Source: Oscillospiraceae bacterium (GTDB taxonomy: Bacteria > Bacillota > Clostridia > Oscillospirales > Acutalibacteraceae). Taken from it: a stretch of 64,000 nt of DNA. The notes beneath the pieces are model-generated. The model had not been told where the DNA came from and searched no databases. It saw only the letters and a program-made list of their open reading frames with translations. Below, piece by piece: positions 21,327-46,790 of this stretch. Each line of letters opens with the position of its first letter. The stretch's first letter is position 1. The stretch lies in contig SVON01000003.1 in NCBI GenBank assembly GCA_015066365.1, forward strand, positions 61,416 to 125,415. Reading direction: 5' to 3'. The position numbers and the translations under genes are program-made.

Positions 21327-21476
21327 AATTATCACCCAATATCAAAATAACACGAAAAATATCAATAGTCAAGTAGACTTTTCTCTTATATTGATATAGT
21401 ATGGTAGCAATAAATTGTTTCTCTGCGGTGGCTTCTCTGGCGATTTGGCACCTCAGGCGAGAAAGGAAGTGTGACA

Positions 21477-23396: not shown

Positions 23397-23402
23397 GGAG
23401 GG

Positions 23403-28612: not shown

Positions 28613-29308
28613 TTAGCGAACCAGTCCCTCGCGGTAGAGGTGGGCGTCGCCGGAATGCTGGACGATCTGGGGGATCACCATGCCGTCGCCGTGGTGATAG
28701 AAGAGGATTTCGGTCACGCCGGTGTGGCATATATTGAACCGGGGGTAGAATACATTGTAGGGAATGTCCATCACACTGCTGAGGAAGGCCAGACCAAAGC
28801 CGTAGTGGGCGAACAGAGCCACCCGGGCCGGGTTATCCCCGATGATGTGATAACAGCCGTTTTCCCGGTCGTGGCGATAGCCCAACTCTTCCAGAAACGT
28901 GTCCACGGCGGCGTCCACCCGGTTGACCCCCCGGGCAAAGTTGGTGTCGGCAAAATAGGGGTGGGTGTACCACGCTCGGCCCAGCTTTTTCACTTCCGGG
29001 TCGTTGAGCTTGCGCACCATCTCCGGCACTTCCAGAATCCACTGGAGGTTGCCGCCTTGATCCTTGGCGCTGAAATCGTCAAAAGCGTGTGCTTCGTGAG
29101 CCCAGTCGCAGAGAATGGGCTCTTTCCCCAGCAGGTCGCAGGTGGGTTGGGCGGTTTGAATGGCCCGGGTGGAGGTGGAGGAATACACCTTGTTTAGCCC
29201 CAAATTCAGAAACCGTTTGGACAAGGCCTTGGCCTGCTCGTGTCCCAGAGGGGTCAGGCTGTCGGGGTCGTAGATGGGCTGACCGTGACGGATGAAATAC
29301 AGACGCAT
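28613..29308 (-). CDS. histidine phosphatase (phosphoglycerate-mutase-like) family protein
   Basis: RHG motif at the N-terminus (MRLYFIRHGQP), then LTPLGHEQA and a downstream H (FAHYG). Paralog at 46062..46790. Confidence 0.8.
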   Translation of the reverse strand: MRLYFIRHGQPIYDPDSLTPLGHEQAKALSKRFLNLGLNKVYSSTSTRAIQTAQPTCDLLGKEPILCDWAHEAHAFDDFSAKDQGGNLQWILEVPEMVRKLNDPEVKKLGRAWYTHPYFADTNFARGVNRVDAAVDTFLEELGYRHDRENGCYHIIGDNPARVALFAHYGFGLAFLSSVMDIPYNVFYPRFNICHTGVTEILFYHHGDGMVIPQIVQHSGDAHLYREGLVR

Positions 29309-29641
29309 AACGCAACACTCCTTTGCTGTTCGCCGGTGGCGAAATGTGTTTTTTTCATCCTACCAGTTTCCGGCGGGAAAAGCAACCGTTTTTCGCAAAA
29401 AAGCGAAAAAAGCAGAGAGGTTACTTAGGAGGTCAAACAGGGCGATTTCTTGGCAAGTTGCACAAAAAACGCCGGTGTGGCGCTGTTTTTGGCGATGATG
29501 AAATTTTATTGTTGATTTTGCCTAACGAATGCCGACGAAAAATAGGCAAAATTCCATAAGTGATTGCTGATTTTGCTAAAAAAAGTAGTCGTTTTTCAGA
29601 GAAATCGTTAAATTTTTATATGTAACAATGGATAAATGCTA

Positions 29642-29670
29642 TTGCAAAATTGCTCTTTTTTTAGTAAAAT
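29642..29670 (+). promoter_or_regulatory. candidate sigma-A promoter of the GH2-ABC-GH130 block
   Basis: TTGCAA (29642-29647), 17-bp spacer, TAAAAT (29665-29670). Confidence 0.5.
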
Positions 29671-29718
29671 ATATGTAAATGTGAGTTAGTGTGGACAAAT
29701 CCATCCAAAAGAAGGTGA

Positions 29719-32571
<2,853 letters not shown>

Positions 32572-32659
32572 TGCCAGTTCCGTAATCTCTATTTTATTTA
32601 TTTCTTTATTATAAGACTTAATCGCAAGCAAAATTTTCAAGGAAAGTGAGTTGTAGACC

Positions 32660-35600
32660 ATGAGACGCTTTGGATTGATTCTGTGCGTGATCGCGCTGAT
32701 GTGTCAGTTCTTGGCTATGCCTGTTTACGCAGAGCCTATCGCCGACGACACGTTGGTTACGGACCACATCCCGGATCTGAACGCTGCAGCGAATTTCGTG
32801 GACGAAGAGTATGACTATAACCAGTACGTTAAGGATCAGAACTCTTCCGTGATGGCTCAGCAGGCCGTCACCATTAACGCCACGGACGTTGCCGAGAAGA
32901 CCGACAGTGTGGTCGTACAGGGCAGCCACCTTCTGTGGGGCACGGAGAAAGACTCCTCTGCCACCTGGAACGTGGAGGTGCCGGCTGATGGCTGGTACAC
33001 CGTATCCTTTACCTATGCCGCCGTACCCGGCGGTAGCTCGGACATTGAGTTGGGTTTCCTGCTCAATGGCAACGTCCCCTTCCCGGAGGCAGAGCGCTTT
33101 ACTCTGCCCCGCATCTGGGTGGATGACGGTGGCATCCGTGAATCCAACGGCAACCAGTTTGCTCCCGAGCAGAAGCAGCTCTACACCAAGCAGACCCGTC
33201 CTCTGCGCGACGTGAACGGCTTTGTGAGCGAGGATCTGCGTGTGTATCTGACCGCCGGCAGCAACTACGTATCCCTGGTTTCCTACGGAGAGGGCTTTAA
33301 GCTGTACGGCATCGAGCTGGGCGTCCCCAAGACGGTCCCCACGCTGAAGCAGGCTCTGGCCCAGTGGAAGGCGCAGGGCATCCAGTATTATTCCGGCCAG
33401 GAGCTGGTGCTGGAGGCTGAGAATACCGACAGAAAGAACGACCGTTCCGTGATCGGTAAGTCGGATAACAGTAACCCCGGTGTTACCCCCTGCAACCCCT
33501 ATAAGCAGATGGTGAACTACATCGGTGGCAGCAACTGGTCTATGCCCGACGAGTACATCACCTGGAAGGTGAGCGCCCCCAAGGCCGGCATCTATAAGCT
33601 GGGCTTCCACTTCCGTCAAAACTATCTGATCAACGCCACCTCCTACCGCAGTCTGAAGGTCAACGGCGAGTATCAGTACGCTGAGCAGGAGAGCCTGGCC
33701 TTTGATTACGGCAACGGCTGGCAGTTCAGCGATACCGTGCTGAAGGGCAAGGAGCTGTTGGTGTACCTGGACAAGGGATCCAACGAGCTGACCATGTCGG
33801 TCACCCTGGGCGATATGAGCACCTTTAGTGCTAAGATGGAGACCATGGTGCTCCGTCTGGGCCGTATGTATCTGGATATCGTGTCCATCGTGGGTGAGAC
33901 CCCCGACTCCAACCGTGACTACGACCTGTTTAAGCGGATCTCCGACCTGGAGCAGCGTATGCGGGATGAGTACAAGCGCATCGAGGGTCTGATCGCTGAG
34001 CGTACCGATGCCGATGGCAACATTGACGATATCGCCGCTCTGCTGCAGAAGATGAACGTGGTTATCGAGAAAATGGTGGAGAAGCAGTACGAGGCGCAGC
34101 TCTACAAGGGCACTTTCTACGATTGTTACGCTTCTCTGTCTGCTCAGCTGCAGGAAATGAAGAATATGGCTCTGGACATCGACTGCATCGTGTTCACCGC
34201 CCCCGGTCGCGAGTGCCAGCGCACCACCGCCGGTTTCTTTTCCACCCTGCAGTTCGAGGCCGAGCGTTTCATCGCCTCCTTTATGCTGGACTACAACAAC
34301 ACCGCCAGCTCCCAGGGTAAAGAGAACCTGACCATCTGGGTCAACTGGTCCCGTGACCAAACGCTGGTTCTGAACTCTCTGATCACCAGTAAGTTTACCC
34401 CCCAATACAACATCGGCGTAACGGTGCGTATGACCAACGCCTCTCTGTTGCAGGGTATTATGTCGGGCAACGGTCCCGACTGTAGCTTGTCCGATTCCCG
34501 TACCACCCCCATTAACTTGGCTATGCGTGGTGCTCTGGTGGATCTGAGCAAGATGGAGGGCTACGACGACCTGTTCTACGGCCCCAACGATACCTATGGC
34601 GAGATCCCCGCGGGTAAAACGATCAAACCCTTCTTTGCCCACGGCTCCGACGAGCCCTACCGTTACGGCGACGGCGTTTACGCCCTGCCGGCAACCCAGC
34701 AGTTCTATATGATGTTCTATCGTACCGACGTGTTTGAGAAATACGGTATCGTGGACGAGAACGGCGTGGCCAAGCCGCCCAAGACCTGGGACGAGTTCCT
34801 GGAAATTGCCAGTATCTTTATGCTGAACAATATGCAGGTGGGTCTGCCCTATACGGAACTGAAAGACATCGGTCAGGTGAACGGCGGTGTGGCATCGCTG
34901 AACATCTTCCCGACCCTGCTGATGCAGGAAGGCCTGTCTATTTATAATAAGGATATGACCGGCACCTCCTTTGCAGAGGTGGATACCATGCGTGTGTTCG
35001 AGGAGTGGACCGATTACTATACTAAGTACAACCTGCCTAAGGAATACAGCTTCTTCAACCGTTTCCGCGTGGGTCAGGTACCGATGGCCATTCAGGCTTA
35101 CGGTCAGTACAGTGCGTTGGCCGCCGCTGCCCCTGAAATCAAGGGCCGCTGGGAGATGGCTGAGATCCCCGGAACTCCCGTGGTGGATGAGAACGGCAAC
35201 CCCGTCATCGACCCCGCGACCGGTGAGCAGAAGATCGACAACCGTCAGGCCGGTTTCGGCAGCGCCTGTATGATTCTGGAGCTGTCCGAGCATAAAGAGG
35301 CTTCTTGGAAACTGCTGAAGTGGTGGATGAGTGAGGAAACCCAGTACAGCTACTCCCTGGATATCGAGTCCATTCTGGGTGTGGCCGGTCGTTATTCCTC
35401 CGCCAACGTGGACGCTACCCTGAACCTGGATTGGGGTAAAGAAGCCAGCAATATTCTGGGTGCCCAGTGGAAGAAAGTGGACGAGATCCGTGAGATTCCC
35501 GGCGGCTATTACGTCTCCCGCGCCGTTGACCAGGCTTTCTGGAACGTGCTGTCTATGAACGCCAACCCCAAGGATATGATGAAGAAGTGGGGCGAGGTTG

Positions 35601-35665
35601 CTGACGTGGAGATCACCAGTAAGATCGAACAGTATAAACATCTTGGGAAAGGAGGAGCCAACTAA
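32660..35665 (+). CDS. giant extracellular solute-binding protein: signal peptide, two CBM6/35-like modules, a coiled-coil linker and a C-terminal family-1 SBP domain
   Basis: N-terminal modules carry ATWNVEVPADGWYTVSFTYA and ITWKVSAPKAGIYKLGFHFR signatures. The C-terminal ~450 aa are SBP-like (NLTIWVNWSRDQ..., KTWDEF, AIQAYGQY..). Permease genes follow directly. Confidence 0.7.
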   Translation: MRRFGLILCVIALMCQFLAMPVYAEPIADDTLVTDHIPDLNAAANFVDEEYDYNQYVKDQNSSVMAQQAVTINATDVAEKTDSVVVQGSHLLWGTEKDSSATWNVEVPADGWYTVSFTYAAVPGGSSDIELGFLLNGNVPFPEAERFTLPRIWVDDGGIRESNGNQFAPEQKQLYTKQTRPLRDVNGFVSEDLRVYLTAGSNYVSLVSYGEGFKLYGIELGVPKTVPTLKQALAQWKAQGIQYYSGQELVLEAENTDRKNDRSVIGKSDNSNPGVTPCNPYKQMVNYIGGSNWSMPDEYITWKVSAPKAGIYKLGFHFRQNYLINATSYRSLKVNGEYQYAEQESLAFDYGNGWQFSDTVLKGKELLVYLDKGSNELTMSVTLGDMSTFSAKMETMVLRLGRMYLDIVSIVGETPDSNRDYDLFKRISDLEQRMRDEYKRIEGLIAERTDADGNIDDIAALLQKMNVVIEKMVEKQYEAQLYKGTFYDCYASLSAQLQEMKNMALDIDCIVFTAPGRECQRTTAGFFSTLQFEAERFIASFMLDYNNTASSQGKENLTIWVNWSRDQTLVLNSLITSKFTPQYNIGVTVRMTNASLLQGIMSGNGPDCSLSDSRTTPINLAMRGALVDLSKMEGYDDLFYGPNDTYGEIPAGKTIKPFFAHGSDEPYRYGDGVYALPATQQFYMMFYRTDVFEKYGIVDENGVAKPPKTWDEFLEIASIFMLNNMQVGLPYTELKDIGQVNGGVASLNIFPTLLMQEGLSIYNKDMTGTSFAEVDTMRVFEEWTDYYTKYNLPKEYSFFNRFRVGQVPMAIQAYGQYSALAAAAPEIKGRWEMAEIPGTPVVDENGNPVIDPATGEQKIDNRQAGFGSACMILELSEHKEASWKLLKWWMSEETQYSYSLDIESILGVAGRYSSANVDATLNLDWGKEASNILGAQWKKVDEIREIPGGYYVSRAVDQAFWNVLSMNANPKDMMKKWGEVADVEITSKIEQYKHLGKGGAN

Positions 35666-36591
35666 TGGGTGCTAAAATGAAGAATCCCTTGCGGAGAAAC
35701 AAAAAAGTCAGCTTTGCACAGGACGCACTGCGTACGCCCTTTATTATGATGCTGCTTCCTTTCTTGCTTCTGTTTGTTCTGTTTACCTTGATTCCCATCG
35801 GTGCTTCCGTGGTACTGAGCTTCTTCGATTACGACGTGGTCAACACCCCCACCTTTACGGGTTTGGCCAACTATCTGAAGATGTTCGTCAACGACTACGA
35901 GTTCCCGATCGCTTTGGCCAACACGCTGAAGTTCGCTCTGGTCACCGGCCCTATCAGCTTCGCTCTGGCGTTCCTGCTGGCCTGGATGATCAACGAGTTT
36001 GGTCCCAAGACCCGCAGCGTGCTGTCCTTCCTGTTCTACTCTCCCGCTCTGGTGGGTAACGGCTATTTCATCTGGCAGATCATGTTCTCCGGTGATAGCT
36101 ACGGTTACGTCAACAGCTTGTTGATCTCTATGGATCTGATTACCGATCCCATCATTTGGTTCCGTGATCCCAACTATGCCTTCACCATCGTGATGATCGT
36201 GCAGTTGTGGATGAGTATGGGTATCTCCTTCCTGGCCAACATCGCCGGTCTGAATAACGTGGACGAAGCGATGTACGAGGCGGGTGCTATCGACGGTATC
36301 CGTAACCGTTGGGCAGAGCTGTGGTACATCACCATTCCGTCTATGAAGAGCATTCTGCTGTTCTCGGCGGTTATGCAGGTGCAGGCCACCTTCTCCATCA
36401 GCTCGGTGGCGACCACTCTGACCGGTTTCCCCTCTGTGAACCACTCGACCGAAACCATTCTGACCCATATTACCGACGTGGGTACCATCCGATTTGATAT
36501 GGGTTATGCCTCGGCGTTGTCCGTGTTCCTATTTGCCATTATGATGATTGTGCGACTAGGCCTTGGACGATTGCTTGTAACTAAGGATTAA
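35665..36591 (+). CDS. carbohydrate ABC transporter permease (MalF/LplB-like)
   Basis: Six-TM profile and EAA loop (DEAMYEAGAIDGIRNRWAELWYITIP). The ATG overlaps the upstream TAA. Confidence 0.85.
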   Translation: MGAKMKNPLRRNKKVSFAQDALRTPFIMMLLPFLLLFVLFTLIPIGASVVLSFFDYDVVNTPTFTGLANYLKMFVNDYEFPIALANTLKFALVTGPISFALAFLLAWMINEFGPKTRSVLSFLFYSPALVGNGYFIWQIMFSGDSYGYVNSLLISMDLITDPIIWFRDPNYAFTIVMIVQLWMSMGISFLANIAGLNNVDEAMYEAGAIDGIRNRWAELWYITIPSMKSILLFSAVMQVQATFSISSVATTLTGFPSVNHSTETILTHITDVGTIRFDMGYASALSVFLFAIMMIVRLGLGRLLVTKD

Positions 36592-36605
36592 AGGGGGGAA
36601 GCGTT

Positions 36606-37505
36606 GTGAAGTTATTTAATTCCGGCAAGCTTAAGCTGACGGCCCACAAGAAAAAGAACTACAAGCGCTTCACCCGTTCCAGAGCAGCCAACGTGGTATT
36701 CGTATCCTTTCTGCTGTTGGCCGGCTTGTTTATGGTTCTGCCGCTGATTTATTCGGTGATGACCTCCTTCAAGCCTCTGGATGAGTTGTTGGCGTTCCCG
36801 CCCAAGTTTTACGTGACCCGTCCCACGATGCAGAACTACGCGGTTCTGCCCAGTCTGCTGGACAACCTGCAGGTGCCGTTCTCCCGTTACCTGTTCAACA
36901 GCTTGTTCATCAGTGTGGCCATTACGGTGGGCCACATCATCGTGGCCGGTATGGCGGCTTTTACGCTCTCCAACTGTAAGCACAAGTTCATCTCCGCCGT
37001 GTTCTGGGGCGTTCAGATCGCTCTGTTGTTCAACGGCTACACTCTGGGTATTCCCCAGTATTTGATCTTCTCCAAGATTGGCATTATCGACACCTATTGG
37101 GTCTACATACTGCCGGCGTTGCAGTCCACCACCGGTGTATTCTTGATGAAGCAGTATATGGACGTCAGTGTGCCGAAGGCCCTGATGGAGGCGGCGCTGT
37201 TGGATGGCGCCGGCTACTACCGTATTTTCTGGAGATTGGTGATGCCTCTGGTAAAACCGGCTTGGCTGACCCTGGCTCTGTTCTCCTTCCGTGACGCATG
37301 GGCGCTGCAGCCCGGCGGCACCATCTTCGACGAAAGTCTGAAGACTCTGCCTGTGGCGATGAACCAGATTGCTGCCAGCGGTATTGCCCGTTCCGGTAGC
37401 GTGATGGCGGCCACGGTGCTGCTGATGATTCCTCCGATTCTTGTGTATTTGGTTTCTCAGTCCAACGTTATGGAAACCATGAGTTCGGCAGGTATGAAGG
37501 ATTAA
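36606..37505 (+). CDS. carbohydrate ABC transporter permease (MalG/LplC-like)
   Basis: EAA loop (LMEAALLDGAGYYRIFWRLVMP). GTG start follows a G-rich RBS. Confidence 0.85.
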   Translation: MKLFNSGKLKLTAHKKKNYKRFTRSRAANVVFVSFLLLAGLFMVLPLIYSVMTSFKPLDELLAFPPKFYVTRPTMQNYAVLPSLLDNLQVPFSRYLFNSLFISVAITVGHIIVAGMAAFTLSNCKHKFISAVFWGVQIALLFNGYTLGIPQYLIFSKIGIIDTYWVYILPALQSTTGVFLMKQYMDVSVPKALMEAALLDGAGYYRIFWRLVMPLVKPAWLTLALFSFRDAWALQPGGTIFDESLKTLPVAMNQIAASGIARSGSVMAATVLLMIPPILVYLVSQSNVMETMSSAGMKD

Positions 37506-37507
37506 GT

Positions 37508-40500
37508 ATGAGTAGTATGAAGAAAAGAAAGGGGGACCACAGGATGATACGCATGAAAGCGCGGCGTGTTCTGGCGTTTATGCTGGTGCTGATGATGCTT
37601 CTCAGCGGCACCACCGCATTTGCGGCAGACGTTGAAGACGTCCCGTATTATTCCTACTGCTATTGGGAAGGCCCCAGCCGCTTTGAGGCTGTTCCCATGC
37701 GCGCGATGTTTGAAGCAACTAAGTACATCAACGGCGATACCCTAGGTACCAAAGCCCTTGAGAGTGCTGAATACGTTACCCTGTCTCCGGATAAGACGGA
37801 ATTGTACGTTCTGGATAGCGGTAACAGCCGTATCCTGGTGATCGATACCAACACCTTCACCCTGAAGAAGGAGATCGCCACCATTCCGTTTAGTCAGACG
37901 GATTACGTGATTGCCAAGCAGACCCAGAAGGTGAAACCCAACACCGACTACGTGCTGTTCTGGTGGACCAAGCTGATGGAGGGCGAGGGTAACCTGGAGC
38001 TGTCCATCCGCAACACTGCCACCAACGCCGCCATCGCCTATCAGGGCGAGGCTTTCTCCAAGGAGTTGGAGGCGTGGGGCAAGAACGTTATGACCTTTAA
38101 CACCGGCGACGCCTCTGAGATCGCGGTCGAGATCGGCCAGTCCTCGGATGACCGCTGTGTGTATCAGCTGGATGAGGCCTTTTTGGTGGAGAAGGCGGTG
38201 CTGGAGGCTACCGCTACCTCCTTCAATCTGGAGGGCCCCATTAAGTTGGAGTTCTACGAAGAAGGCGGCACCTACCGTCTGGTCACCTCCACCAAGGTGG
38301 GGGACAAGACCCTCGAGACCAAGTATAACCTGATCGTCGACGGTTATTATCAGGAAACTTGGGCTTATGCCGAAGAGGCTATGGCGGCGGTGTTTGCTAA
38401 CGAGGCGAATCTGTACGATCATCTGAGCACTTCCGATTTTGAGATCACGCTGGAGCCCAGTGATCGGGGCGACGGTAGCTTTGACGTGTCGATGAGCATT
38501 CCCGACACCGACAACGTCGAGGATCTGAAAGCACAGATGGCCGCCTTTAAGGTGGAGCTGCAGAAGATTACGCTGAAGGAGACTCTGGACAGCCTGGAGG
38601 CGGTGTTTGCCACCGACTTTAACAGCGACATGGGCTCCTGGACCGGCGACTGCGGTTCCTCCCGCGACGTGGTGCAGGATCTGGACGAGGCTTCCGATGC
38701 CGGTTCGATGAAGATCGAGAGCACCCTGAGCTATAAGGGCGCTTTGGGTATGTACGTCAGCGCCAAGGGCGAGATTTATCTGGCCGATACCGAGAACTTC
38801 CGTATTCTCATTATGGATTCCAACGGTTATCTGAACCGCTTGATCCTGAAGCCGGAGGACCCGGAGAACAAGAAGGGCATCCCCAAGGATCTGGAGTTCA
38901 AGCCCAAGCGGATCGTGATGGACAACAAGGGCTATCTCTTTGTGGTCAGCAGCGGCTGCTACTACGGTATGCTGGTGTACGATGAGACCGAGGATTTCAA
39001 AGGCTTCCACGGCTCTTACAAGGTTGAGGCGACGGTTCTGGATACCATCGAGGGTTGGATCACCGGTCTGTTTATGACCAATGAGAAGAACGCTCAGTCC
39101 CAGAAGAAGCTGCCTCAGGAAATCCTGGACATCTCCATTGATGCCGACGGTATGCTGTATACCTTGTCCGGCGGTGGTGCCGGTCAGGTGAAGCGTCTGG
39201 GCCTGAACGGTAACCAGACCCTGAACCATAAGTTCGGCTTCCAGACCCAGAGCGGTGACCTGGTCAACTTCTCTGAGAACCCGGCCATGTACTGGCATAA
39301 GCACGATCAGTATATCCTGAGTATGGCGGCTATCACCGTTGACTCTCAGGGCTTCTCCTACGTTCTGGATAAGAACCGCGGCCGTATCTTCATGTACGAC
39401 GAAGAGTGCCGCGCCGTGTGTTCCTTCTCTACCGGCTTTGGTGCCGGTGATCAGGTGGGTACCTTTGTTACCCCCCAGTCCATCGTGTGCAGCGACAACC
39501 GTCTGTTTGTGGTGGACTTCGTGACCGGTGGTATCACCGTGTTTGAGCTGACCGAGTACGGTCGTCTGTTCAAGCAGGCTGACGTGCTGACCATCGACGG
39601 TGAGTACGAGAAGGCGCTGCCCATCTGGCAGAAGGTGCTGAAGATGGACGCCAACAACCAGCGCGCCTACGAGGGCGTCGCCAAGGCGATGCTGTCCCTG
39701 GGCAACAAGGCGAAAAACGCCGGCGATATGGTGAAGGCCAATGAGTATTACGAGGCTTGTATGAATTACGCCGAGATGGGTCACGATCAGCAGACCTATT
39801 CCGAGGCCTTCAGCGAGGTACAGACCGAGTGGTTGACCAACAACTTCTGGTGGATCTTCCTGCTGTGTCTGGCTTTGGTGGGCGGTATTGCGGCCCTGCT
39901 GGTGCTGTCCAAGAAGCGTAAGCTCATCAACATCAAGAACGATAAGCTGCGCGTGGCGCTGACCGTTCCCTTCCATCCCTTCCAGGCCTTCCAGGCGATG
40001 AAGTATCAGAAGTTTACTTCGGCTAAGCTGAGCATTGCATTCCTGGTAATCTTCTACCTGTGCAGTGTGTCGGAGGACCTGTACGGCGGCTTTATGTACG
40101 TGATTACCGACGTAGCCAACTACAACGCCATTTATACCTTGATCGGTACGGTGGGTATTCTGTTGCTGTGGGTGATCGTCAACTGGGGCATCTGTATTCT
40201 GAACGACGGTAAAGGCTCTCTGAAAGAGGTCTTTACGATGTCTGCGTACAGTATGACTCCCTTGATCGTCTACTCGGTGATCTTTACGGTGGGCTCCCAC
40301 GTGATTGCTGCTTCCGAGACCTCTACTTTCGGAATCATCAGCACGATTATGTTTATATACACGGCACTGCTGCTGCTCATTGGTATGACGGTGGTGCACG
40401 AGTATACCTTCTTCAAGTCGATGAAGATGGCCATTTTGACAATTCTCGGTATGTTGTTGGCGGCGTTCGTGATCTTCTCGGTCATTCTGTTGACCCAGCA

Positions 40501-40549
40501 GTTCGTCGTATTCTTTGTCAACATCATCGATGAGATCGCACTACGATAA
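37508..40549 (+). CDS. large membrane protein: signal/anchor, NHL-type beta-propeller with inserted CBM-like module, TPR segment and a C-terminal Yip1-like multi-TM domain
   Basis: NHL-like blades (LDSGNSRILVIDTN, LADTENFRILIMDSNG, LDKNRGRIFMYDEE, RLFVVDFVTGGITVFE). KPNTDYVLFWW module. TPR-like DGEYEKALPIWQKVLKMDANNQRAYEG. About six TM segments in the last ~230 aa. Confidence 0.65.
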   Translation: MSSMKKRKGDHRMIRMKARRVLAFMLVLMMLLSGTTAFAADVEDVPYYSYCYWEGPSRFEAVPMRAMFEATKYINGDTLGTKALESAEYVTLSPDKTELYVLDSGNSRILVIDTNTFTLKKEIATIPFSQTDYVIAKQTQKVKPNTDYVLFWWTKLMEGEGNLELSIRNTATNAAIAYQGEAFSKELEAWGKNVMTFNTGDASEIAVEIGQSSDDRCVYQLDEAFLVEKAVLEATATSFNLEGPIKLEFYEEGGTYRLVTSTKVGDKTLETKYNLIVDGYYQETWAYAEEAMAAVFANEANLYDHLSTSDFEITLEPSDRGDGSFDVSMSIPDTDNVEDLKAQMAAFKVELQKITLKETLDSLEAVFATDFNSDMGSWTGDCGSSRDVVQDLDEASDAGSMKIESTLSYKGALGMYVSAKGEIYLADTENFRILIMDSNGYLNRLILKPEDPENKKGIPKDLEFKPKRIVMDNKGYLFVVSSGCYYGMLVYDETEDFKGFHGSYKVEATVLDTIEGWITGLFMTNEKNAQSQKKLPQEILDISIDADGMLYTLSGGGAGQVKRLGLNGNQTLNHKFGFQTQSGDLVNFSENPAMYWHKHDQYILSMAAITVDSQGFSYVLDKNRGRIFMYDEECRAVCSFSTGFGAGDQVGTFVTPQSIVCSDNRLFVVDFVTGGITVFELTEYGRLFKQADVLTIDGEYEKALPIWQKVLKMDANNQRAYEGVAKAMLSLGNKAKNAGDMVKANEYYEACMNYAEMGHDQQTYSEAFSEVQTEWLTNNFWWIFLLCLALVGGIAALLVLSKKRKLINIKNDKLRVALTVPFHPFQAFQAMKYQKFTSAKLSIAFLVIFYLCSVSEDLYGGFMYVITDVANYNAIYTLIGTVGILLLWVIVNWGICILNDGKGSLKEVFTMSAYSMTPLIVYSVIFTVGSHVIAASETSTFGIISTIMFIYTALLLLIGMTVVHEYTFFKSMKMAILTILGMLLAAFVIFSVILLTQQFVVFFVNIIDEIALR

Positions 40550-40579
40550 GCCGATCGGCAAAGAAAGGAAGAGCTAGTT

Positions 40580-42979
40580 ATGATGAAAAGAACAGTTTGT
40601 CTGTGCCTGGTTATGTTGCTCTTGTTGCCGATGGTGCTGACCGGATGCGGTACCGAACTGGAGAAAACGACCAAAGGCTTTAACGAAAAGTTCGGCGATA
40701 AGCGAGTTGCCATCCACACGGTGGATAACGAGCGCTTTCAGCTGATCTATCAGGATTACGGCCTGCAGCATGTGATCATGCTGTACGATAAGCAGGCGGG
40801 CAAGGTGTATAGTTCCGTCCCGTATGACTACTATCTGGGTCAGAACCCGCTGAGCGCGGACAACGCCTATGCCGATAGCATCCTGTCTAACCCCCTCAGC
40901 ATTAGTTACATCAAGACCAACGAAGAGACCAATATGAGCAACATCGACTATGCCGATGCTTCTACCGACTGTATTGAAAAGCAGCAGTCCATTCAGAAGC
41001 CTCTGCTGGACGAGAACGGTAAGCAGCAGGTGGATGCCGACGGCAATCCGCTGTATGAGACCGAGTGGTTGTTCATCGACAGCCCTGCCGGTGACGGCAC
41101 CCAGTGGGAGAAGAACGGCATCACCAGCGAGATCATTGACAACGGTGTGCGTGTGACCTACTCCTTCCCGGAGCTGCGCATCGCGGTGGCGGTGGAGTAC
41201 GTCCTGGAGAGCAACGGCCTGGTGGTGCGCATCCCCATGGATCGCATCGAAGAGGATGACAACCTGCTGTTTGAGGTTTCGGTGCTGCCCTACTTTGCGT
41301 CTGCTGCTCACGAGCAGGAGACCAAGGGTGACTCTTATCTGATGCTTCCCTCTGGTGGCGGTGCTCTGGTGTACGGCCAGAAGCTGAACAAAAAGGCAAC
41401 CTACTCCGAGGCTGTGTACGGTACGGATGCCAGCGAGCCGGTCTCGATGATCAAGCGCATTGATCGTCAGGTGCATATGCCGGTGTTCGGTGCCAAGATG
41501 GGTAAGACCACGGTTGCTGAGAACACCGATGCCAGCGTGCTGGGCATTCTGGAGAACGGCGCCAGCTGTGGCCGCATTAACGCCACCATCGGCGATGCCG
41601 ACGTGGGTTATTCCTGCGCCTACGCCTCCTTCCGTGTCCGCGGTCAGGATGAGGTGCTGTACAACAGCATGGGCAACCAGGAGCTGGCTGCCCCTAGCTT
41701 CAGCAAATCCATTGTGGATTACAAAGAACTGTCTGTGCGCTACATCCCGGTGGATGGCGATGCCTCCTATATGGGTATGGCCAACACCTATCGCAGCTAT
41801 CTGCAGAGTAAGGGCTATCTGAAGTCCCGTCCCACCAGCACTCCGGCTCTGTCGGTCAGCCTGCTGGGCGGCACCCAGACCCGTGAGTCCTTCTTCGGCA
41901 TCCCCTACGATACCACCACAACCACCACCACGGTGGAGCAGTCCCTGACCATTTCCAAGGAACTGAAGAAATTGGTGGGTAACGACCAGCTGCTGGTGAC
42001 CCTGATGGGTTACGGCGAGGGCGGCTTGGCCAACACCGTAGTTGGTGGTGGCTATGAGCTGGAGGGCGACGACGACGCCTGGGCGGCTCTGCGCGATTAC
42101 GCGAAGAAGAACAACATCGTTCTGTCTCTGGATTATGAGACCATCAAGTTCAATGAGAGCGGTTCCGGCTTCTCGGTCGGGGACGACGCGGCCTATACCA
42201 TCTCCCAGCTGGAGGCGAAGATGCGCACCTACGTGCTGAACACCGCTGTGGAGAATGAGGCTAAGTACTGGTATTTGCTGACCCGTAGCCAGCAGGCTGA
42301 GGCGGTGCGCAAGGCAATCGAGAACGCTAAGGAGAACGGCTTCAATTCCGTTTCCTTCGCCACCTTGAGCAGTGTGGCCTATTCCGACTATCACGACGGT
42401 CACTATACCGCCAAGGCGCATATGGCCGAGGACGTGGCCGCCCTGCTGAAAGAGGTCAAGAAGAACGGCCTCGGCATTGTGTCCACTAAGGCCAATGAGT
42501 ACGCCGCTCTGAATGCGGATTACATCATCGAGACGCCCTTGCAGTCCTCTAAGCTGAGCCTGTTCGATGAGGAGATTCCCTTCTACTCCATCGTGTTCCA
42601 GGGCTACAAGGCGCTGACCTCGACCTCCATCAATACCTCTGTCAACGTGAAGAACGCGTATCTGAACGCGGTGGCCACCGGTGCTGCACTGCAGTTTACT
42701 CTGTGCGACACCCCCCACGATTCTCTGCGGTTTGAAGAGGATACCGCCTACATCACCAGTCGCTACGCCAACTGGAAGAAAGATATTGCCGCGATGGTCA
42801 AGGAGTACGACGCTGTCCACGACAGGGTGGGCAACAAGGCCATTGTGGAATACACCAAGAAGGACGGCGTGTCCAAGACGGTGTTTGAGGACGGTACCAC
42901 CATCTACGTAAACTACAATAAAACCGCTACCGGTTGCCCCGCGGGTGAGATTCCTGCTCAGGGCTTCATCGTCGGTTAA
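40580..42979 (+). CDS. large uncharacterised lipoprotein (possibly DUF5696-type)
   Basis: Lipobox LTGCG. 799 aa with no catalytic motif I can name. The DUF assignment is a recollection of similar loci and is not verified. Confidence 0.55.
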   Translation: MMKRTVCLCLVMLLLLPMVLTGCGTELEKTTKGFNEKFGDKRVAIHTVDNERFQLIYQDYGLQHVIMLYDKQAGKVYSSVPYDYYLGQNPLSADNAYADSILSNPLSISYIKTNEETNMSNIDYADASTDCIEKQQSIQKPLLDENGKQQVDADGNPLYETEWLFIDSPAGDGTQWEKNGITSEIIDNGVRVTYSFPELRIAVAVEYVLESNGLVVRIPMDRIEEDDNLLFEVSVLPYFASAAHEQETKGDSYLMLPSGGGALVYGQKLNKKATYSEAVYGTDASEPVSMIKRIDRQVHMPVFGAKMGKTTVAENTDASVLGILENGASCGRINATIGDADVGYSCAYASFRVRGQDEVLYNSMGNQELAAPSFSKSIVDYKELSVRYIPVDGDASYMGMANTYRSYLQSKGYLKSRPTSTPALSVSLLGGTQTRESFFGIPYDTTTTTTTVEQSLTISKELKKLVGNDQLLVTLMGYGEGGLANTVVGGGYELEGDDDAWAALRDYAKKNNIVLSLDYETIKFNESGSGFSVGDDAAYTISQLEAKMRTYVLNTAVENEAKYWYLLTRSQQAEAVRKAIENAKENGFNSVSFATLSSVAYSDYHDGHYTAKAHMAEDVAALLKEVKKNGLGIVSTKANEYAALNADYIIETPLQSSKLSLFDEEIPFYSIVFQGYKALTSTSINTSVNVKNAYLNAVATGAALQFTLCDTPHDSLRFEEDTAYITSRYANWKKDIAAMVKEYDAVHDRVGNKAIVEYTKKDGVSKTVFEDGTTIYVNYNKTATGCPAGEIPAQGFIVG

Positions 42980-43000
42980 TGAAAGGAGGATGACGATACA

Positions 43001-43894
43001 ATGAAACGATCTTTGAAAGACTTTAGTCAAAAAAGAAGAATGTATGGCCGTATGTTCATCCTCCCTTGGGAGATTGGCTTTGTCATTTTCTTCCTGATCC
43101 CGTTGGCTCAGTCTCTGATGTTCGTGTTCTCCAACGTAACCATCGGTCAAAGCGACTTTAATACGGTTTGGACCGGTATGGACAACATCAACTACATCTT
43201 CAACCAGTCTCCCAAGTATGTGGAGAACTTGGTGGATTCGCTAACCTCCTTCACTTACTCCATCCCCCTGGTGGTGGCCCTGAGTTTGATCGTGGCGGTT
43301 ATGCTGAATCAGAAGTTTAAGGGCCGCGTGATCTTCCGTTCCATTTTCTTCCTGCCTGTGATCATTGCCACCGGTGTGGTAATGAACTACATCCAGGGCG
43401 ACGCCGCCGCAGAGGCTCTGCGTAGCGGCGGTGCGGAGGCTTCCTCCTCCGGTGTGAACGTGACCGAGATCCTGCAGGGTATGAACCTGTCCACCGAGAT
43501 CACGGACTTCTTAGTAGGCTTTGTTAACCAGATCTTCAACCTGTTCTGGGATTGCGGCGTGCAGATCGTTCTGTTCATTTCCGGTCTGCAGTCCATTCCT
43601 GAGCAGCTGTACGAGGTGTGCAAGGTTGAGGGTGCCAACGAGTGGGAAAAATTCTGGTACGTGACCTTCCCGATGCTGAGTGGTACCACGCTGCTGGTGG
43701 TGGTGTTCACCGCCATTGAGATCTTCACCGACTCCGCCAACCTGGTGATGAAGCAAGCCTACGCCGCCATGCAGCAGCAGATTTACGATCGCAGTGCGGC
43801 GATGCTGTGGGTCTACTTTGCTCTGGTCGGTTTGATCCTAGGTGTGGTCGTGCTCCTGTTGCAGAAGAAGATATTCGCCAAATGGGCGACCTGA
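43001..43894 (+). CDS. carbohydrate ABC transporter permease (MalF-like), second pair
   Basis: TM profile and EAA-type loop (IPEQLYEVCKVEGANEWEKFWYVTFP). RBS AAAGGAGG. Confidence 0.85.
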   Translation: MKRSLKDFSQKRRMYGRMFILPWEIGFVIFFLIPLAQSLMFVFSNVTIGQSDFNTVWTGMDNINYIFNQSPKYVENLVDSLTSFTYSIPLVVALSLIVAVMLNQKFKGRVIFRSIFFLPVIIATGVVMNYIQGDAAAEALRSGGAEASSSGVNVTEILQGMNLSTEITDFLVGFVNQIFNLFWDCGVQIVLFISGLQSIPEQLYEVCKVEGANEWEKFWYVTFPMLSGTTLLVVVFTAIEIFTDSANLVMKQAYAAMQQQIYDRSAAMLWVYFALVGLILGVVVLLLQKKIFAKWAT

Positions 43895-43918
43895 TGCCGA
43901 TATGTGAGGTGATGAAAA

Positions 43919-44878
43919 GTGTTTAATTTTAAGAAAATCAAGAACGACCCGCAGTCGGCTCTGTTGATGAAAAAACGCTTAACTCATGGTATCGTGTCGT
44001 TTGTGCGTTATTTCTTCCTGCTGGCATTGAGCTACGTGGTTCTGTTCCAGCTGATCTTTATGATCAGCTACTCCATCCGTCCCCCTGTGGACGCCTACAA
44101 CCCCAGCGTTGTGTGGATTCCCTCCGAGTTCACCCTGGAGAATTTTACGGTGGCATATGACTCGTTGGATTATCTGAACTCCGGTCTGGTTTCTGTGTAC
44201 ATTATGATGATCGCCGCGTTGATCGAGGTGTTTACCTGTGCGGTGATCGCTTACGGCTTCGCCCGCTTCGACTTCAAGGAGAAAGGACTCGTTTTCTTCC
44301 TGGTGCTGGTCACCATTATGGTGCCGGTGCAGATGCTGGTGGTGCCTATGTACCTGAACTTCTCGCACTTTGACATCTTGGGCATCGGTAACCTGATCCG
44401 TGAGTGGACCGGCACCGACATCCGTCCCAATATGCTGAACACCGCCTGGACCTTCTATCTGCCGTCCCTGTTTGGTGTTGGCGTGCGTTCCGGTCTGTTC
44501 ATCTTCATCTACCGTAAGTTCTTTGAGGGTCTGCCCCGCGAGTTGGAAGAGGCTGCTTACGTGGATGGTGCCGGCCCCCTGCGCACCTTCCTGTCGGTCA
44601 TCCTGCCTTCTTCCGGTGTGGTGTTCCTGACGGTGACCATCTTCTCCAGCATTTGGCACTGGAACGAAAACTATCTGTCCGGCTTGTTCCTGCAGGAGAA
44701 GCCCAGCCTGGCTGTGATGATGGATCTGCTGGATACCTCGCTGGAGCAGAACGGCGGCGACAACCGTATGACCCGTATGGCGGCTTGCTTGCTGTTCATT
44801 CTGCCGATGCTCATTATGTATATGATTCTGCAGCGTAAGTTCGTGCAGAGTATCGACCGTGTGGGTATCGTTGGTTAA
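43919..44878 (+). CDS. carbohydrate ABC transporter permease (MalG-like), second pair
   Basis: EAA loop (LPRELEEAAYVDGAGPLRTFLSVILP). GTG start follows GAGGTG. Confidence 0.85.
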   Translation: MFNFKKIKNDPQSALLMKKRLTHGIVSFVRYFFLLALSYVVLFQLIFMISYSIRPPVDAYNPSVVWIPSEFTLENFTVAYDSLDYLNSGLVSVYIMMIAALIEVFTCAVIAYGFARFDFKEKGLVFFLVLVTIMVPVQMLVVPMYLNFSHFDILGIGNLIREWTGTDIRPNMLNTAWTFYLPSLFGVGVRSGLFIFIYRKFFEGLPRELEEAAYVDGAGPLRTFLSVILPSSGVVFLTVTIFSSIWHWNENYLSGLFLQEKPSLAVMMDLLDTSLEQNGGDNRMTRMAACLLFILPMLIMYMILQRKFVQSIDRVGIVG

Positions 44879-44917
44879 TGCCCACCACACAACTGTAACT
44901 GAAAAGGAGTTTTTACT

Positions 44918-45904
44918 ATGGCTAAGATTGTAAACGGTGTTTCTCTGCCCAACATCCCCTGGCAGGATCGTCCCGCCGGCTGCGACAACGTGGTGTGGCG
45001 TTATTCCGAGAACCCCATCATTAAGCGCAACCCCGCTAAGAATTGTCAGCGCGTGTTTAACAGCGCCGTCGTGCCGTGGGGCGACGAGTTTATCGGTGTG
45101 TTCCGCGCCGATACTACCATCACCACCCCCAACCTGCACGTGGGTCATTCCAAGGATGGTATCAACTGGGAGATCGAGCCCGAGGCCATCGACTGGCGTG
45201 ATGAGAACGGCGAGCCCTTCGTTTCTACCTACTATTACGATCCCCGCGTCACCTGGATCGAGGATGCTTACTATGTGATGTGGTGCACCGAGCAGGGCGG
45301 CCCCGTTCTGGGTCTGGGCAAGACCAACGATTTCAAGAACTTCACCCGTCTGCCCAACGTCACCCTGCCCTTCAACCGTAACGGCGTGCCCTTCCCCCGC
45401 AAGGTGAACGGCAAGTACCTGATGTTTAACCGTCCCTCCGACGACGGCCACACCCCCTTCGGTGACATTTGGCTGTCTGAGTCTCCCGACCTGGTTTACT
45501 GGGGCAACCACAAGCACGTGATGGCCCGTGGCACCAACGTGTGGTGGGAGTCCACCAAGATCGGTGCCGGTAATGTGCCGATCGAGACCGATGAGGGCTG
45601 GCTGGTGTTCTACCATGGTGTTATCAATACCTGTAATGGTTTTGTGTACTCCTTTGGTGCGATGCTGTGCGACCTGGACGATCCCTCCAAGGTGATCTAT
45701 CGCGGCCGCGAGTACCTGATCACCCCCGAAGAGGATTATGAGACCGTGGGCTTTGTTCCCAACGTTTGCTTCCCCTGCGCTTGCCTGGCGGATGCCGACA
45801 CCGGTCGTATCGCCATCTACTACGGTGCGGCTGACACCTATGTGGCCCTGGCCTTCACCACCGTGGACGAGGTTCTGGACTACCTGAAGAACAACCATCA
45901 GTAA
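44918..45904 (+). CDS. GH130 family beta-mannoside phosphorylase/hydrolase-like protein
   Basis: 328 aa. NPIIKRNP...VFNSAVVPWGDEFIGVFRAD...DPRVTWIED.YYVMW...NGVPFPRKVNGKYLMFNRP...GAG..PIETDEGWLVFYHGV is typical of five-bladed-propeller GH130. Confidence 0.8.
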   Translation: MAKIVNGVSLPNIPWQDRPAGCDNVVWRYSENPIIKRNPAKNCQRVFNSAVVPWGDEFIGVFRADTTITTPNLHVGHSKDGINWEIEPEAIDWRDENGEPFVSTYYYDPRVTWIEDAYYVMWCTEQGGPVLGLGKTNDFKNFTRLPNVTLPFNRNGVPFPRKVNGKYLMFNRPSDDGHTPFGDIWLSESPDLVYWGNHKHVMARGTNVWWESTKIGAGNVPIETDEGWLVFYHGVINTCNGFVYSFGAMLCDLDDPSKVIYRGREYLITPEEDYETVGFVPNVCFPCACLADADTGRIAIYYGAADTYVALAFTTVDEVLDYLKNNHQ

Positions 45905-45910
45905 TGCATA

Positions 45911-45945
45911 AAAAACGCCCCTGCGTAGGCAGGGGCGTTTTTTTT
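45911..45945 (+). terminator. rho-independent terminator ending the 16-kb block
   Basis: aacgcccctgc / gcaggggcgtt stem plus a T-run. Confidence 0.85.
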
Positions 45946-46061
45946 GCGCTCATTTACCGATTATCGTAGGATTTTATTATGAGTGGGGGAGATTTTGCAA
46001 TTCTTCCTGTGCTATACTGTACTTAAGATAAGGTAATACACTGAAAAGGAGGAATTCTGGG

Positions 46062-46790
46062 ATGATTTTTTATTATGTGCGTCACGGTGACCCCGTCTAT
46101 AATCCCGACAGCCTGACCCCGCTGGGGGAGCGGCAGGCAGAGGCGGTGGCGAAGCGTTTGTGTATGTTTGGGGTGAACAAGATCTATGCCTCCACCTCCA
46201 ACCGGGCGATCTTGACCGGTAAGCCCACCGCCGATATCCTGGGCAAGGAGATCGAGCAGTTGGAGTTCTGCAACGAGGCCAACATCGCTAAGGATTTTAT
46301 GATCGGCGAGTGGCCCCATCCCGATCAGGACTGGGCCTGGCGGCATAAGGATGTGCGTCCTTTGTTCCTGGATCCCGAGGTGATCGCTATGGGCCACGAC
46401 TGGTACAAGCACCCCAAACTGGCTCAGTATACCTTTGCCCACGGCATTGAGGCGATGTACGAGGGGGTAGATAAGCTGTTTGCCGAGCTGGGCTATGAGC
46501 ACGATCGCTACACCGGCACCTACAAGCCGGTTAATGACAACGATAAGCGGGTGGCGCTGTTTGCCCATCAGGGCTGCAGCACGGTGTTTCTCAGCTGTCT
46601 GTTGGATATTCCGTATCCCATTTTCTCCACCCGGTTTGATATGTGTCACAGCGGCTTCACCGCCATCGACTTCCACCCGGACAAAAATGGCGTGGTGGTG
46701 CCCCGTATTATGACTCTGTCCAACGACTCTCACTTGTACCGGGAGGGTTTGCCGCTGAAGTACAATCACGACAACCGTTGCCGATTTTGA
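46062..46790 (+). CDS. histidine phosphatase family protein (paralog of 28613..29308)
   Basis: MIFYYVRHGDPVYNPDSLTPLGERQA..., VALFAHQG, SNDSHLYREGL. Colinear with the other copy. Confidence 0.8.
   Translation: MIFYYVRHGDPVYNPDSLTPLGERQAEAVAKRLCMFGVNKIYASTSNRAILTGKPTADILGKEIEQLEFCNEANIAKDFMIGEWPHPDQDWAWRHKDVRPLFLDPEVIAMGHDWYKHPKLAQYTFAHGIEAMYEGVDKLFAELGYEHDRYTGTYKPVNDNDKRVALFAHQGCSTVFLSCLLDIPYPIFSTRFDMCHSGFTAIDFHPDKNGVVVPRIMTLSNDSHLYREGLPLKYNHDNRCRF

Follow-up and report, generated by a model that had tools for sequence, protein, structure and literature searches.

A 64,000-nucleotide stretch of DNA from an Oscillospiraceae bacterium (contig SVON01000003.1, positions 61,416 to 125,415; hereafter the window) encodes, at 37508-40549 on the forward strand, an exported protein that carries a six-bladed NHL-type beta-propeller and about two tetratricopeptide repeats (TPR) outside the cell, followed by a transmembrane helix (TM1), a cytoplasmic linker and a five-helix Yip1 bundle. 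The gene is a fixed member of a cassette with two pairs of ATP-binding cassette (ABC) permeases and a giant substrate-binding protein (SBP). We propose for this protein a non-catalytic role, organising or tethering the parts of this twin CUT1 importer, and suggest that a carbohydrate-binding module (CBM) inserted into its propeller adds glycan capture in this lineage. We consider this the most likely of the readings, though evenly balanced between right and wrong. What is new here is an insert that is apparently permuted and nested, a giant SBP that consistently lacks an anchor, a mapped fission point within the protein and a sequence-verified link to an operon of Caldicellulosiruptor bescii.

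An Extracellular NHL Propeller Fused to a Yip1 Membrane Domain

The open reading frame (ORF) is open over 1013 codons (1013 aa), begins 2 nt past the stop codon of the preceding permease gene and is followed by the next gene after 30 nt. An alternative ATG at 37544 (M13, MIRMK...) has the better upstream sequence, a Shine-Dalgarno-like AAGGGGG run, and corresponds to the annotated start of several homologs. Thus, the protein may be 1001 aa long. Hydropathy reveals a signal peptide (residues 20-40, with a cleavage-type site between AFA and AD), a strong TM1 (780-802) followed by SKKRK and five further hydrophobic helices within residues 840-1008. By the positive-inside rule, residues 41-778 are predicted to lie outside the cell and the linker of residues 805-838 in the cytoplasm, with the C-terminus outside again.

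A first-pass annotation of the sequence had predicted an extracellular propeller with at least four NHL blade motifs, a TPR-like helical segment in front of a transmembrane helix and a Yip1 domain with about five more helices, and all six sequence strings that it quoted are present in the translation. These assignments hold. The Yip1 family (PF04893) matches residues 820-989 with 46.9 bits (Pfam cut-off 28.6) over profile positions 3-172 of 173, and the topology agrees, as a basic linker is followed by the five hydrophobic helices, which an AlphaFold2 (AF2) model places at residues 839-1012. NHL (PF01436) reaches 36.1 bits against a Pfam cut-off of 20, and four copies of its motif could be placed at residues 102-115 (LDSGNSRILVIDTN), 425-440 (LADTENFRILIMDSNG), 620-633 (LDKNRGRIFMYDEE) and 665-680 (RLFVVDFVTGGITVFE). 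The two remaining strings fall in the insert discussed below (KVKPNTDYVLFWW, residues 141-153) and in TM1 (FWWIFLLCLALVGGIAALLVL, residues 780-800). The TPR models of Pfam stay under their cut-offs (TPR_12, 18.0 bits vs. 30.1; TPR_2, 16.5 vs. 27), while a designed consensus TPR in the PDB (CTPR-rv4) matches residues 692-753 with an E-value (E) of 2.6e-8, and many homologs carry precomputed TPR family matches.

The AF2 model of the full protein, built on 77 family members, has a mean predicted local distance difference test score (pLDDT) of 86.9 and a predicted template modelling score (pTM) of 0.70. The strands of the propeller lie at residues 49-128 and 414-681, separated by an inserted region at 126-411. 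Within the propeller, a hairpin at 510-531 is modeled with lower confidence and contains the conserved sequence LFMTNEK. Four TPR-like helices (683-757) follow, and a single long helix (761-804) runs from the TPR segment into the membrane. Since this helix connects the TPR segment directly to TM1, the propeller is probably kept near the membrane surface and not on a long stalk.

In a Foldseek search of the PDB, the top matches are six-bladed NHL propellers, led by Thin (6xg7; E 4.5e-10, target TM-score (TMt) 0.62, root-mean-square deviation (rmsd) 4.7, 275 columns). The entry 8j72_A (TMt 0.63, about 275 columns) and the NHL domains of TRIM71, TRIM2 and Brat are also among the best. At the sequence level, residues 608-700 match the TRIM71 NHL domain in the PDB (E 3.1e-5). 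The propellers of TRIM71, TRIM2, Thin and Brat therefore share both the repeat family and the fold with the window protein. However, the eukaryotic NHL domains act within cells, where they bind RNA or proteins, and none has a CBM insert or a Yip1 domain. A comparable extracellular sensor propeller of the NHL type, carried by one transmembrane helix, is known from PknD of Mycobacterium tuberculosis.

Conservation was measured in 42 members with less than 40% identity to the query. Mean column identity is 0.45 in the propeller, 0.39 in the TPR segment and 0.46 in the Yip1 part. Conserved positions of the propeller belong mainly to the repeated Asp...Arg motif of NHL repeats (D103/R108, D427/R432, D621, D670) or are glycines and aromatic residues. 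A conserved cluster of His, Glu, Asn or Cys was not seen in the propeller of these distant members; the lack of a His/Glu/Cys cluster argues against an enzyme. In the membrane part, H823-P824, N873, N892-W893, G901, G903, Y914, P918, H964 and E1009 are conserved, several of them in cytoplasmic loops; the conserved motifs of this part are HPF, NWGIC, GKGS and HEY (HEYTFFK), with a terminal Glu. Such a pattern would be expected if a conserved partner protein were contacted at or within the membrane.

A Conserved Seven-Gene Cassette With Two Permease Pairs

In the window, the gene order is GH2 (glycoside hydrolase family 2) beta-galactosidase, 1001-aa SBP, permeases A and B, the NHL-Yip1 gene, a 799-aa DUF5696 lipoprotein, permeases C and D, and GH130. 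The placement inside an ABC permease operon, as described by the first-pass annotation, is thus borne out by permeases on both sides in a fixed order. The NHL-Yip1 gene is the invariant fourth of seven genes, and the order is kept in all 21 of 21 related loci, whose homologs share 25-70% identity. The flanks of the cassette vary: GH2 and GH130 are found in close relatives, which are Acutalibacteraceae and other Clostridia metagenome-assembled genomes (from goat, sheep and other samples), and pectate-lyase-like or housekeeping genes elsewhere.

Beyond these loci, we searched with the cassette-type Yip1 domain in 400 other genomes, which were sampled evenly from the GTDB phylum of the window organism. 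A match was found in 31 of the 400 genomes (about 8%) and in 19 of 278 genera, with six or more in several genomes. We inspected 29 further loci obtained in this way. The fused protein is encoded in 20 of them, and in nine the NHL-TPR-TM1 part and the Yip1 part have a gene each, placed end to end; a DUF5696 gene comes next in 26 of these loci. Where the protein is split, TM1 and a basic tail close the first product, and the second begins immediately ahead of the HPF motif. Hence, the fusion joint is the cytoplasmic linker. The co-occurrence of split (9/29) and fused (20/29) loci is classic fission/fusion evidence that the two halves work together. The genome of the window holds a second short Yip1 frame (contig C20:14783-15253, locus L008; 250 aa, 29.7 bits), which is not beside a DUF5696 gene because the genome has only one.

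The permeases match the UgpA/UgpE, MalF/MalG and GlcT/GlcU models, and the binding domain of the SBP is of the SBP_bac_1/8 type. Identity between the two permease pairs is only 24%, whereas positional counterparts in distant loci are far closer (e.g., 404 vs. 37 bits). Judged by these sequence comparisons, the pairs are ancient and distinct, each keeping its own slot. A Pfam search for ABC_tran found no match among the cassette genes; the genome has a single ATPase with an OB_MalK domain (MalK/MsmX-type), which is unlinked (contig C17). A promoter and terminator scan of 29200-46200 gave nothing above shuffled expectation, and a sequence-level search of the PDB with DUF5696 found no relative. 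Another SBP, a lipoprotein of 520 aa (lipobox LVSC), is encoded alone at 53334-54896 (+), at a distance of 8.4 kb downstream from the cassette. Its homology to an SBP located directly after the cassette in locus L001 covers the entire protein (26% identity, E 2e-50), and this lipoprotein may be a displaced second binding protein that serves permeases C and D.

The giant SBP of the cassette has a signal peptide of the AXA type and no lipobox in 22 of 22 loci, and the window protein shows no hydrophobic segment besides its signal peptide. DUF5696, by comparison, has a lipobox in 17 of 22 loci. An unanchored SBP of a monoderm bacterium would be lost if nothing held it. If the signal peptide is cleaved as predicted, the membrane-proximal propeller/TPR ectodomain or the DUF5696 lipoprotein would be the obvious candidates for this task. 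The signal peptides of the giant SBPs in the window (32660-32750) and in its close relatives (loci L006 and L010-L023) also share two conserved cysteines in the pattern MRRFG.ALC..ALLCQ.L..PV.A, which is not a lipobox.

An Apparently Permuted Carbohydrate-Binding Module Inside the Propeller

In an alignment of 120 homologs, residues 126-411 form an insertion between blades 1 and 2. Seventy-one homologs have only a loop of about 20 residues at this site, about 37 have inserts of 150-225 residues and eight have inserts of 275-370. In the native order, residues 135-210 match only positions 52-132 of CBM_4_9 in Pfam (19.3 bits). In shorter inserts, the sequence behind this segment (NLVQNGEFDGG...W) resembles the N-terminal strands of CBM_4_9 instead, as do residues 367-411 of the window protein (FATDFNSDMGSW...). 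When residues 367-411 are joined in front of residues 126-231, the match extends to profile positions 8-132 (24.1 bits, E 5e-5), and re-permuting the homolog P0057 improves its CBM_4_9 match likewise. Neither the native nor the re-permuted score reaches the Pfam cut-off of 25.9 bits.

In comparisons by hhalign with the canonical modules of giant proteins of the window, the re-permuted profile is colinear over 137 columns (probability 99.5, E 1.3e-22) and takes in the (D/E)F-x-x-G-x-W motif, while the native order aligns over 104 columns only. The position of the N-terminal CBM strands behind the remainder of the module indicates a circular permutation. A separate AF2 model of the insert (pLDDT 90.8, pTM 0.88) was compared to known structures with Foldseek, and all reliable matches are CBMs: a porphyran-binding module (8xmz; 97 columns, rmsd 3.1), CBM16-1 (2zey and 3oeb; about 104 columns, 22-24% identity, probability 0.97-0.99) and also CBM22 and CBM4-2. 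Foldseek probabilities are 0.96-1.0, but the E-values are weak (3e-3 to 9e-2) and the alignments span only the contiguous two-thirds of the module. Taking sequence profiles and partial fold matches together, the insert appears to be a circularly permuted beta-sandwich of the CBM4/9/16/22 type. It has the beta-sandwich fold in common with CBM16-1 of Man5A from C. polysaccharolyticus (PDB 2zey, 3oeb), and differs from canonical CBM4/9/16/22 modules in its apparently permuted strand order, its location in a propeller loop and its interruption by a module of 135 aa.

The insert had been described before as jelly-roll-like and similar to the CBMs of neighboring genes. The similarity stands: the insert profile matches the window ORFs at 57074-61354 (E 1.5e-70, eight copies), 23403-25997 (2.5e-13), 21471-23396 (2.7e-12) and 48757-51003 (5.5e-10), and these proteins themselves pass the CBM_4_9 cut-off. 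The jelly roll, in contrast, is not a simple one, as it is apparently permuted and contains a nested module. At least 13 other large ORFs of the 1.6-Mb genome carry one to eight copies of the CBM_4_9-like module of the insert. They lie in the window at 21471-25997, 48757-51003 and 57074-61354 (+) and on contigs C15, C25 and C26, and one protein of 1426 aa has eight copies. This is a heavy investment for a genome of 1.6 Mb. The idea that the giant SBP and the insert share the same module was rejected, because the CBM profile of the insert has no match in the N-terminal modules of the SBP. Among the Acutalibacteraceae loci, presence of the insert does not track with the length of the giant SBP or of DUF5696.

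The nested module (module B, residues 232-366) lies exactly where the ancestral CBM would have had its termini and is present only in the eight listed homologs with the longest inserts. In the AF2 insert model, it has an alpha/beta order of three strands, two helices, a strand and a long helix. No paralog was found in the genome, and a search of 1.84 billion representative proteins returned only four matches. Besides one member of the family, these are three giant proteins (1514, 6503 and 1804 aa) with five or six partial copies; one of the three is rich in fn3, cadherin and Big_9 domains. Searches of the PDB and BFVD gave no confident fold relative, and Pfam gave only a weak match to DUF4364 (E 0.003). 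The top PDB match, a Tuc2009 tripod chain, was not relied on (TM 0.16, rmsd 17 Å).

Further additions to the ectodomain are found in other homologs. P0100 (locus L002, 997 aa) and P0113 (951 aa) have no CBM insert and carry a propeller-like segment of 255-293 residues after the position of P0001 residue 72. In P0005 (1064 aa), the CBM insert is itself enlarged by 43 residues behind the site that corresponds to P0001 residue 187; this segment (CxxC...CxxC; TCNACYGEV...CPLCEAEM) sits in a CBM loop and looks zinc-ribbon-like. The ectodomain, with its different additions in different lineages, thus acts as an exposed platform to which further modules can be added.

Relation to Published Systems

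The xylan degradation locus of Caldicellulosiruptor (Anaerocellum) bescii includes a published operon with a homolog, xloEFG-X-GH129-axoFGE; this operon is under the control of XynR and AraR, and its expression is induced on xylan (Rodionov et al., 2021; PMC8579813). The gene "X" of this operon is unnamed and has no function assigned (PMC8579813). In the supplement of the same paper, Athe_0177 is listed as "NHL repeat-containing protein" with differential expression on xylan and Avicel, and Csac_2417 and Csac_2415 flank the corresponding slot. The loci found with our Yip1 query encode the exact C. bescii protein ACM59329.1 ("NHL repeat containing / YIP1 family protein"), and a protein of another such locus falls in the 90% cluster that contains Csac_2416. 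Judging from its annotation, its slot and the Csac_2416 ortholog, ACM59329.1 is probably the gene tagged Athe_0177. The window protein and ACM59329.1 are 31% identical across 608 residues (E 2e-78) and also align in the N-terminal 108 residues; ACM59329.1 lacks the insert. Like the window gene, X follows the first permease pair and precedes the DUF5696/"GH129" gene and the second pair. However, the C. bescii protein has 716 aa and no CBM insert, and its locus is one for xylan, with SBP genes at either end. The family therefore has published transcript evidence, while its function is not assigned in the publications. A literature search on DUF5696, on Athe_0177/Csac_2416 and on the combination of Yip1, NHL and SBP found no discussion of the function of the protein.

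Bacterial Yip1 proteins had been considered by the first-pass annotation to have no defined function. This is qualified by YknW, a Yip1-family protein of Bacillus, which, according to a passage in PMC4887032 that cites Yamada et al. (2012), modulates the assembly of the ABC exporter YknXYZ. As with the window protein, YknW is a polytopic membrane protein of the Yip1 family that is encoded with an ABC transporter. In contrast, it lacks the propeller/TPR/CBM ectodomain. Moreover, YknYZ is an exporter of the MacB type with a membrane-fusion protein, whereas the neighbors in the window are importer permeases of the MalF/MalG type (BPD_transp_1) and an SBP.

With respect to transport, the cassette resembles the CUT1 importers (MalEFGK2/MsmEFGK-type) of Gram-positive polysaccharide utilization loci, which likewise combine an SBP and such permeases with a shared MsmX/MsmK ATPase encoded outside the operon. 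It departs from a textbook CUT1 system in having two distinct permease pairs in one fixed unit and two extra fixed proteins, NHL-Yip1 and DUF5696. Its SBP differs as well, being unanchored and 1001 aa long with an N-terminal extension of 550 aa. The SusCD "utilisome" of Bacteroidota, in which a surface glycan-binding protein and an enzyme-like lipoprotein stay assembled with a transporter, would be a parallel to the cassette. This is a functional analogy only, as the proteins, the membrane and the energy source are entirely different.

Proposed Role and Alternative Explanations

If the protein organises the twin importer, the Yip1 bundle would pack on one or both permease dimers, especially via its conserved cytoplasmic loops and intramembrane polar residues, in parallel to the part of YknW in YknXYZ assembly. 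The propeller and TPR ectodomain would hold the giant SBP and/or the DUF5696 lipoprotein above the permeases, and the CBM insert would provide direct capture of polysaccharide in this lineage. As GH2 and GH130 genes flank the cassette and the insert has a CBM16-like fold, a glycan containing beta-mannosides or beta-galactosides is a reasonable guess for the substrate. A structural, gating or surface-scaffold role had also been suggested in the first-pass annotation; the fixed gene order, the split and fused forms and the YknW precedent are compatible with it, while the role itself we infer.

Several points weigh against a tether or organiser. Association with other members of the cassette is predicted from conserved gene order and the YknW precedent, and such gene order signifies a functional linkage but not which function. 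The signal peptide of the giant SBP might stay uncleaved and serve as its own anchor, which would remove the main argument for a tether. The YknW precedent comes from a MacB-type exporter and not from a type I importer. Furthermore, the CBM insert is missing in 71 of the 120 homologs. Glycan binding is thus not a general property of the family, unless the propeller itself binds sugar.

Two alternatives overlap with the organiser reading. The protein might be a surface glycan-binding protein, in which the propeller (with the CBM, where present) binds polysaccharide and presents it to DUF5696 and the SBPs, and Yip1 is a mere anchor. This would suit the insertion of a CBM-type module into the propeller of about 37% of the listed homologs, the extra propeller-like segment in other lineages, which is typical of an exposed binding platform, and the location of the cassette beside differing glycan-degrading genes in differing genomes. 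A single helix or a lipid would be enough as anchor, yet Yip1 is conserved like the propeller, cytoplasmic loops included, and is retained as a separate gene in the split forms. Together with the lack of any identified sugar-binding motif in the propeller, this makes a pure glycan-binding protein rather unlikely. In the second alternative, Yip1 might contact the permeases or the shared MsmX/MalK-type ATPase to coordinate the two importers, with the ectodomain as a sensor of substrate or partner. The conserved cytoplasmic motifs HPF, GKGS and HEYTFFK point in this direction, as do the position of the gene between two anciently diverged permease pairs that share one unlinked ATPase and, in the passage cited above (PMC4887032), the modulation of ABC complex assembly by YknW. 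However, the protein has no recognisable signaling or nucleotide-binding domain and nothing shows that the two importers are coupled, so that we regard a coupler or gate as distinctly unlikely.

A catalytic propeller, e.g., a lyase, lactonase or esterase that acts on the glycan, is very improbable. Some six-bladed propellers are enzymes, several homologs have precomputed matches to PF08450 (SMP-30/gluconolactonase/LRE-like) and one source names the C. bescii protein accordingly. Yet the conserved residues of the propeller mainly represent the structural NHL motif, with no metal-binding cluster of His, Glu, Asn or Cys, and the best fold matches are non-enzymatic NHL domains. It would be harder still to see in the protein a general envelope component whose gene merely accompanies those of the transporter, with no part in uptake. 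While no experiment ties the protein to transport, its position is invariant in 21 + 29 loci across distant lineages (47 with the full order or an adjoining DUF5696 gene), some genomes have six or more matches of the cassette-type Yip1, and the NHL gene Athe_0177 is co-regulated on xylan with the rest of the C. bescii operon (PMC8579813). A mere passenger is scarcely credible on these grounds.

The organiser reading can be extended to a Gram-positive "utilisome", in which the Yip1 bundle would be the hub of a supercomplex of two type I importers, a shared ATPase, an otherwise unanchored CBM-bearing giant SBP and a putatively glycosidase-shaped lipoprotein. This is a tentative proposal that may well be wrong. 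If it is true, capture, trimming and import of polysaccharides would take place on one machine, and the Yip1 fold would be a general assembly factor for membrane complexes from bacteria to eukaryotes. How Gram-positive gut bacteria and fiber degraders retain large glycans, together with the proteins that bind them, at their surface and hand them over to ABC importers is poorly understood, whereas the Sus-type machines of Bacteroidota are well described. The cassette is widespread in gut and fiber-degrading Gram-positive bacteria and contains two fixed accessory proteins without assigned function. The homolog in the genetically tractable A. bescii makes the role directly testable, and what the protein holds and binds can be predicted in concrete, falsifiable terms from the unanchored giant SBP and the nested CBM insert.

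Feature Coordinates and Antisense Reading Frames

Table 1. Positions in the window of the NHL-Yip1 gene, its predicted parts and the other cassette genes.
Feature	Coordinates	Strand	Basis
Whole ORF: NHL propeller, CBM insert, TPR, TM1, Yip1	37508..40549	+	ORF, Pfam, AF2
Signal peptide, residues 13-40; h-region 20-37; AFA-AD cleavage-type site	37544..37627	+	Hydropathy; cleavage inferred from AXA motif
Conserved N-terminal strands (VPYYSYCYWEGPSR) and NHL blade 1, residues 41-125	37628..37882	+	Alignment, AF2 model
Insert part 1, residues 126-231; putative C-terminal two thirds of CBM_4_9-type beta-sandwich	37883..38200	+	Pfam profile, neighbor matches, Foldseek
Nested module B, residues 232-366, alpha/beta	38201..38605	+	Present in the eight listed homologs with the longest inserts
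Insert part 2, residues 367-411; putative CBM N-terminal strands (DFNSDMGSW motif)	38606..38740	+	Profile comparisons
NHL blades 2-6, residues 412-682; conserved helical hairpin 510-531 (LFMTNEK)	38741..39553	+	Pfam, AF2, Foldseek
TPR-like helices, residues 683-760, about two repeats	39554..39787	+	Pfam, PDB match, AF2
Juxtamembrane helix continuous with TM1, residues 761-804; then KKRK on the cytoplasmic side	39788..39919	+	Hydropathy, AF2
Cytoplasmic linker, residues 805-838, conserved HPF motif; split forms divide here	39920..40021	+	Conservation, split loci
Yip1 five-helix membrane domain, residues 839-1013; conserved NWG, GKG, HEY, terminal Glu	40022..40546	+	Pfam, hydropathy, AF2
Cassette gene 1, giant SBP, 1001 aa, cleavage-type signal peptide	32660..35665	+	Pfam, sequence
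Cassette genes 2-3, permeases A/B	35665-36591, 36606-37505	+	Pfam, family models
Cassette gene 5, DUF5696 lipoprotein, 799 aa, lipobox LTGC	40580..42979	+	Pfam, sequence
Cassette genes 6-7, permeases C/D	43001-43894, 43919-44878	+	Pfam, family models

Opposite most genes, the minus strand has ORFs of nearly gene length (29752-32445, 32618-35641, 37742-40399 and 40574-43150). Codons ending in A are nearly unused: TCA accounts for 3 of 724 Ser codons, CCA for 3 of 441 Pro and ACA for 8 of 765 Thr, and TTA (11) and CTA (16) are rare among 914 Leu codons. The antisense ORFs are an artefact of this codon usage, because the complements of stop codons hardly occur in frame. The one opposite the NHL-Yip1 gene starts at the first of the two CTA codons of that gene (37742).

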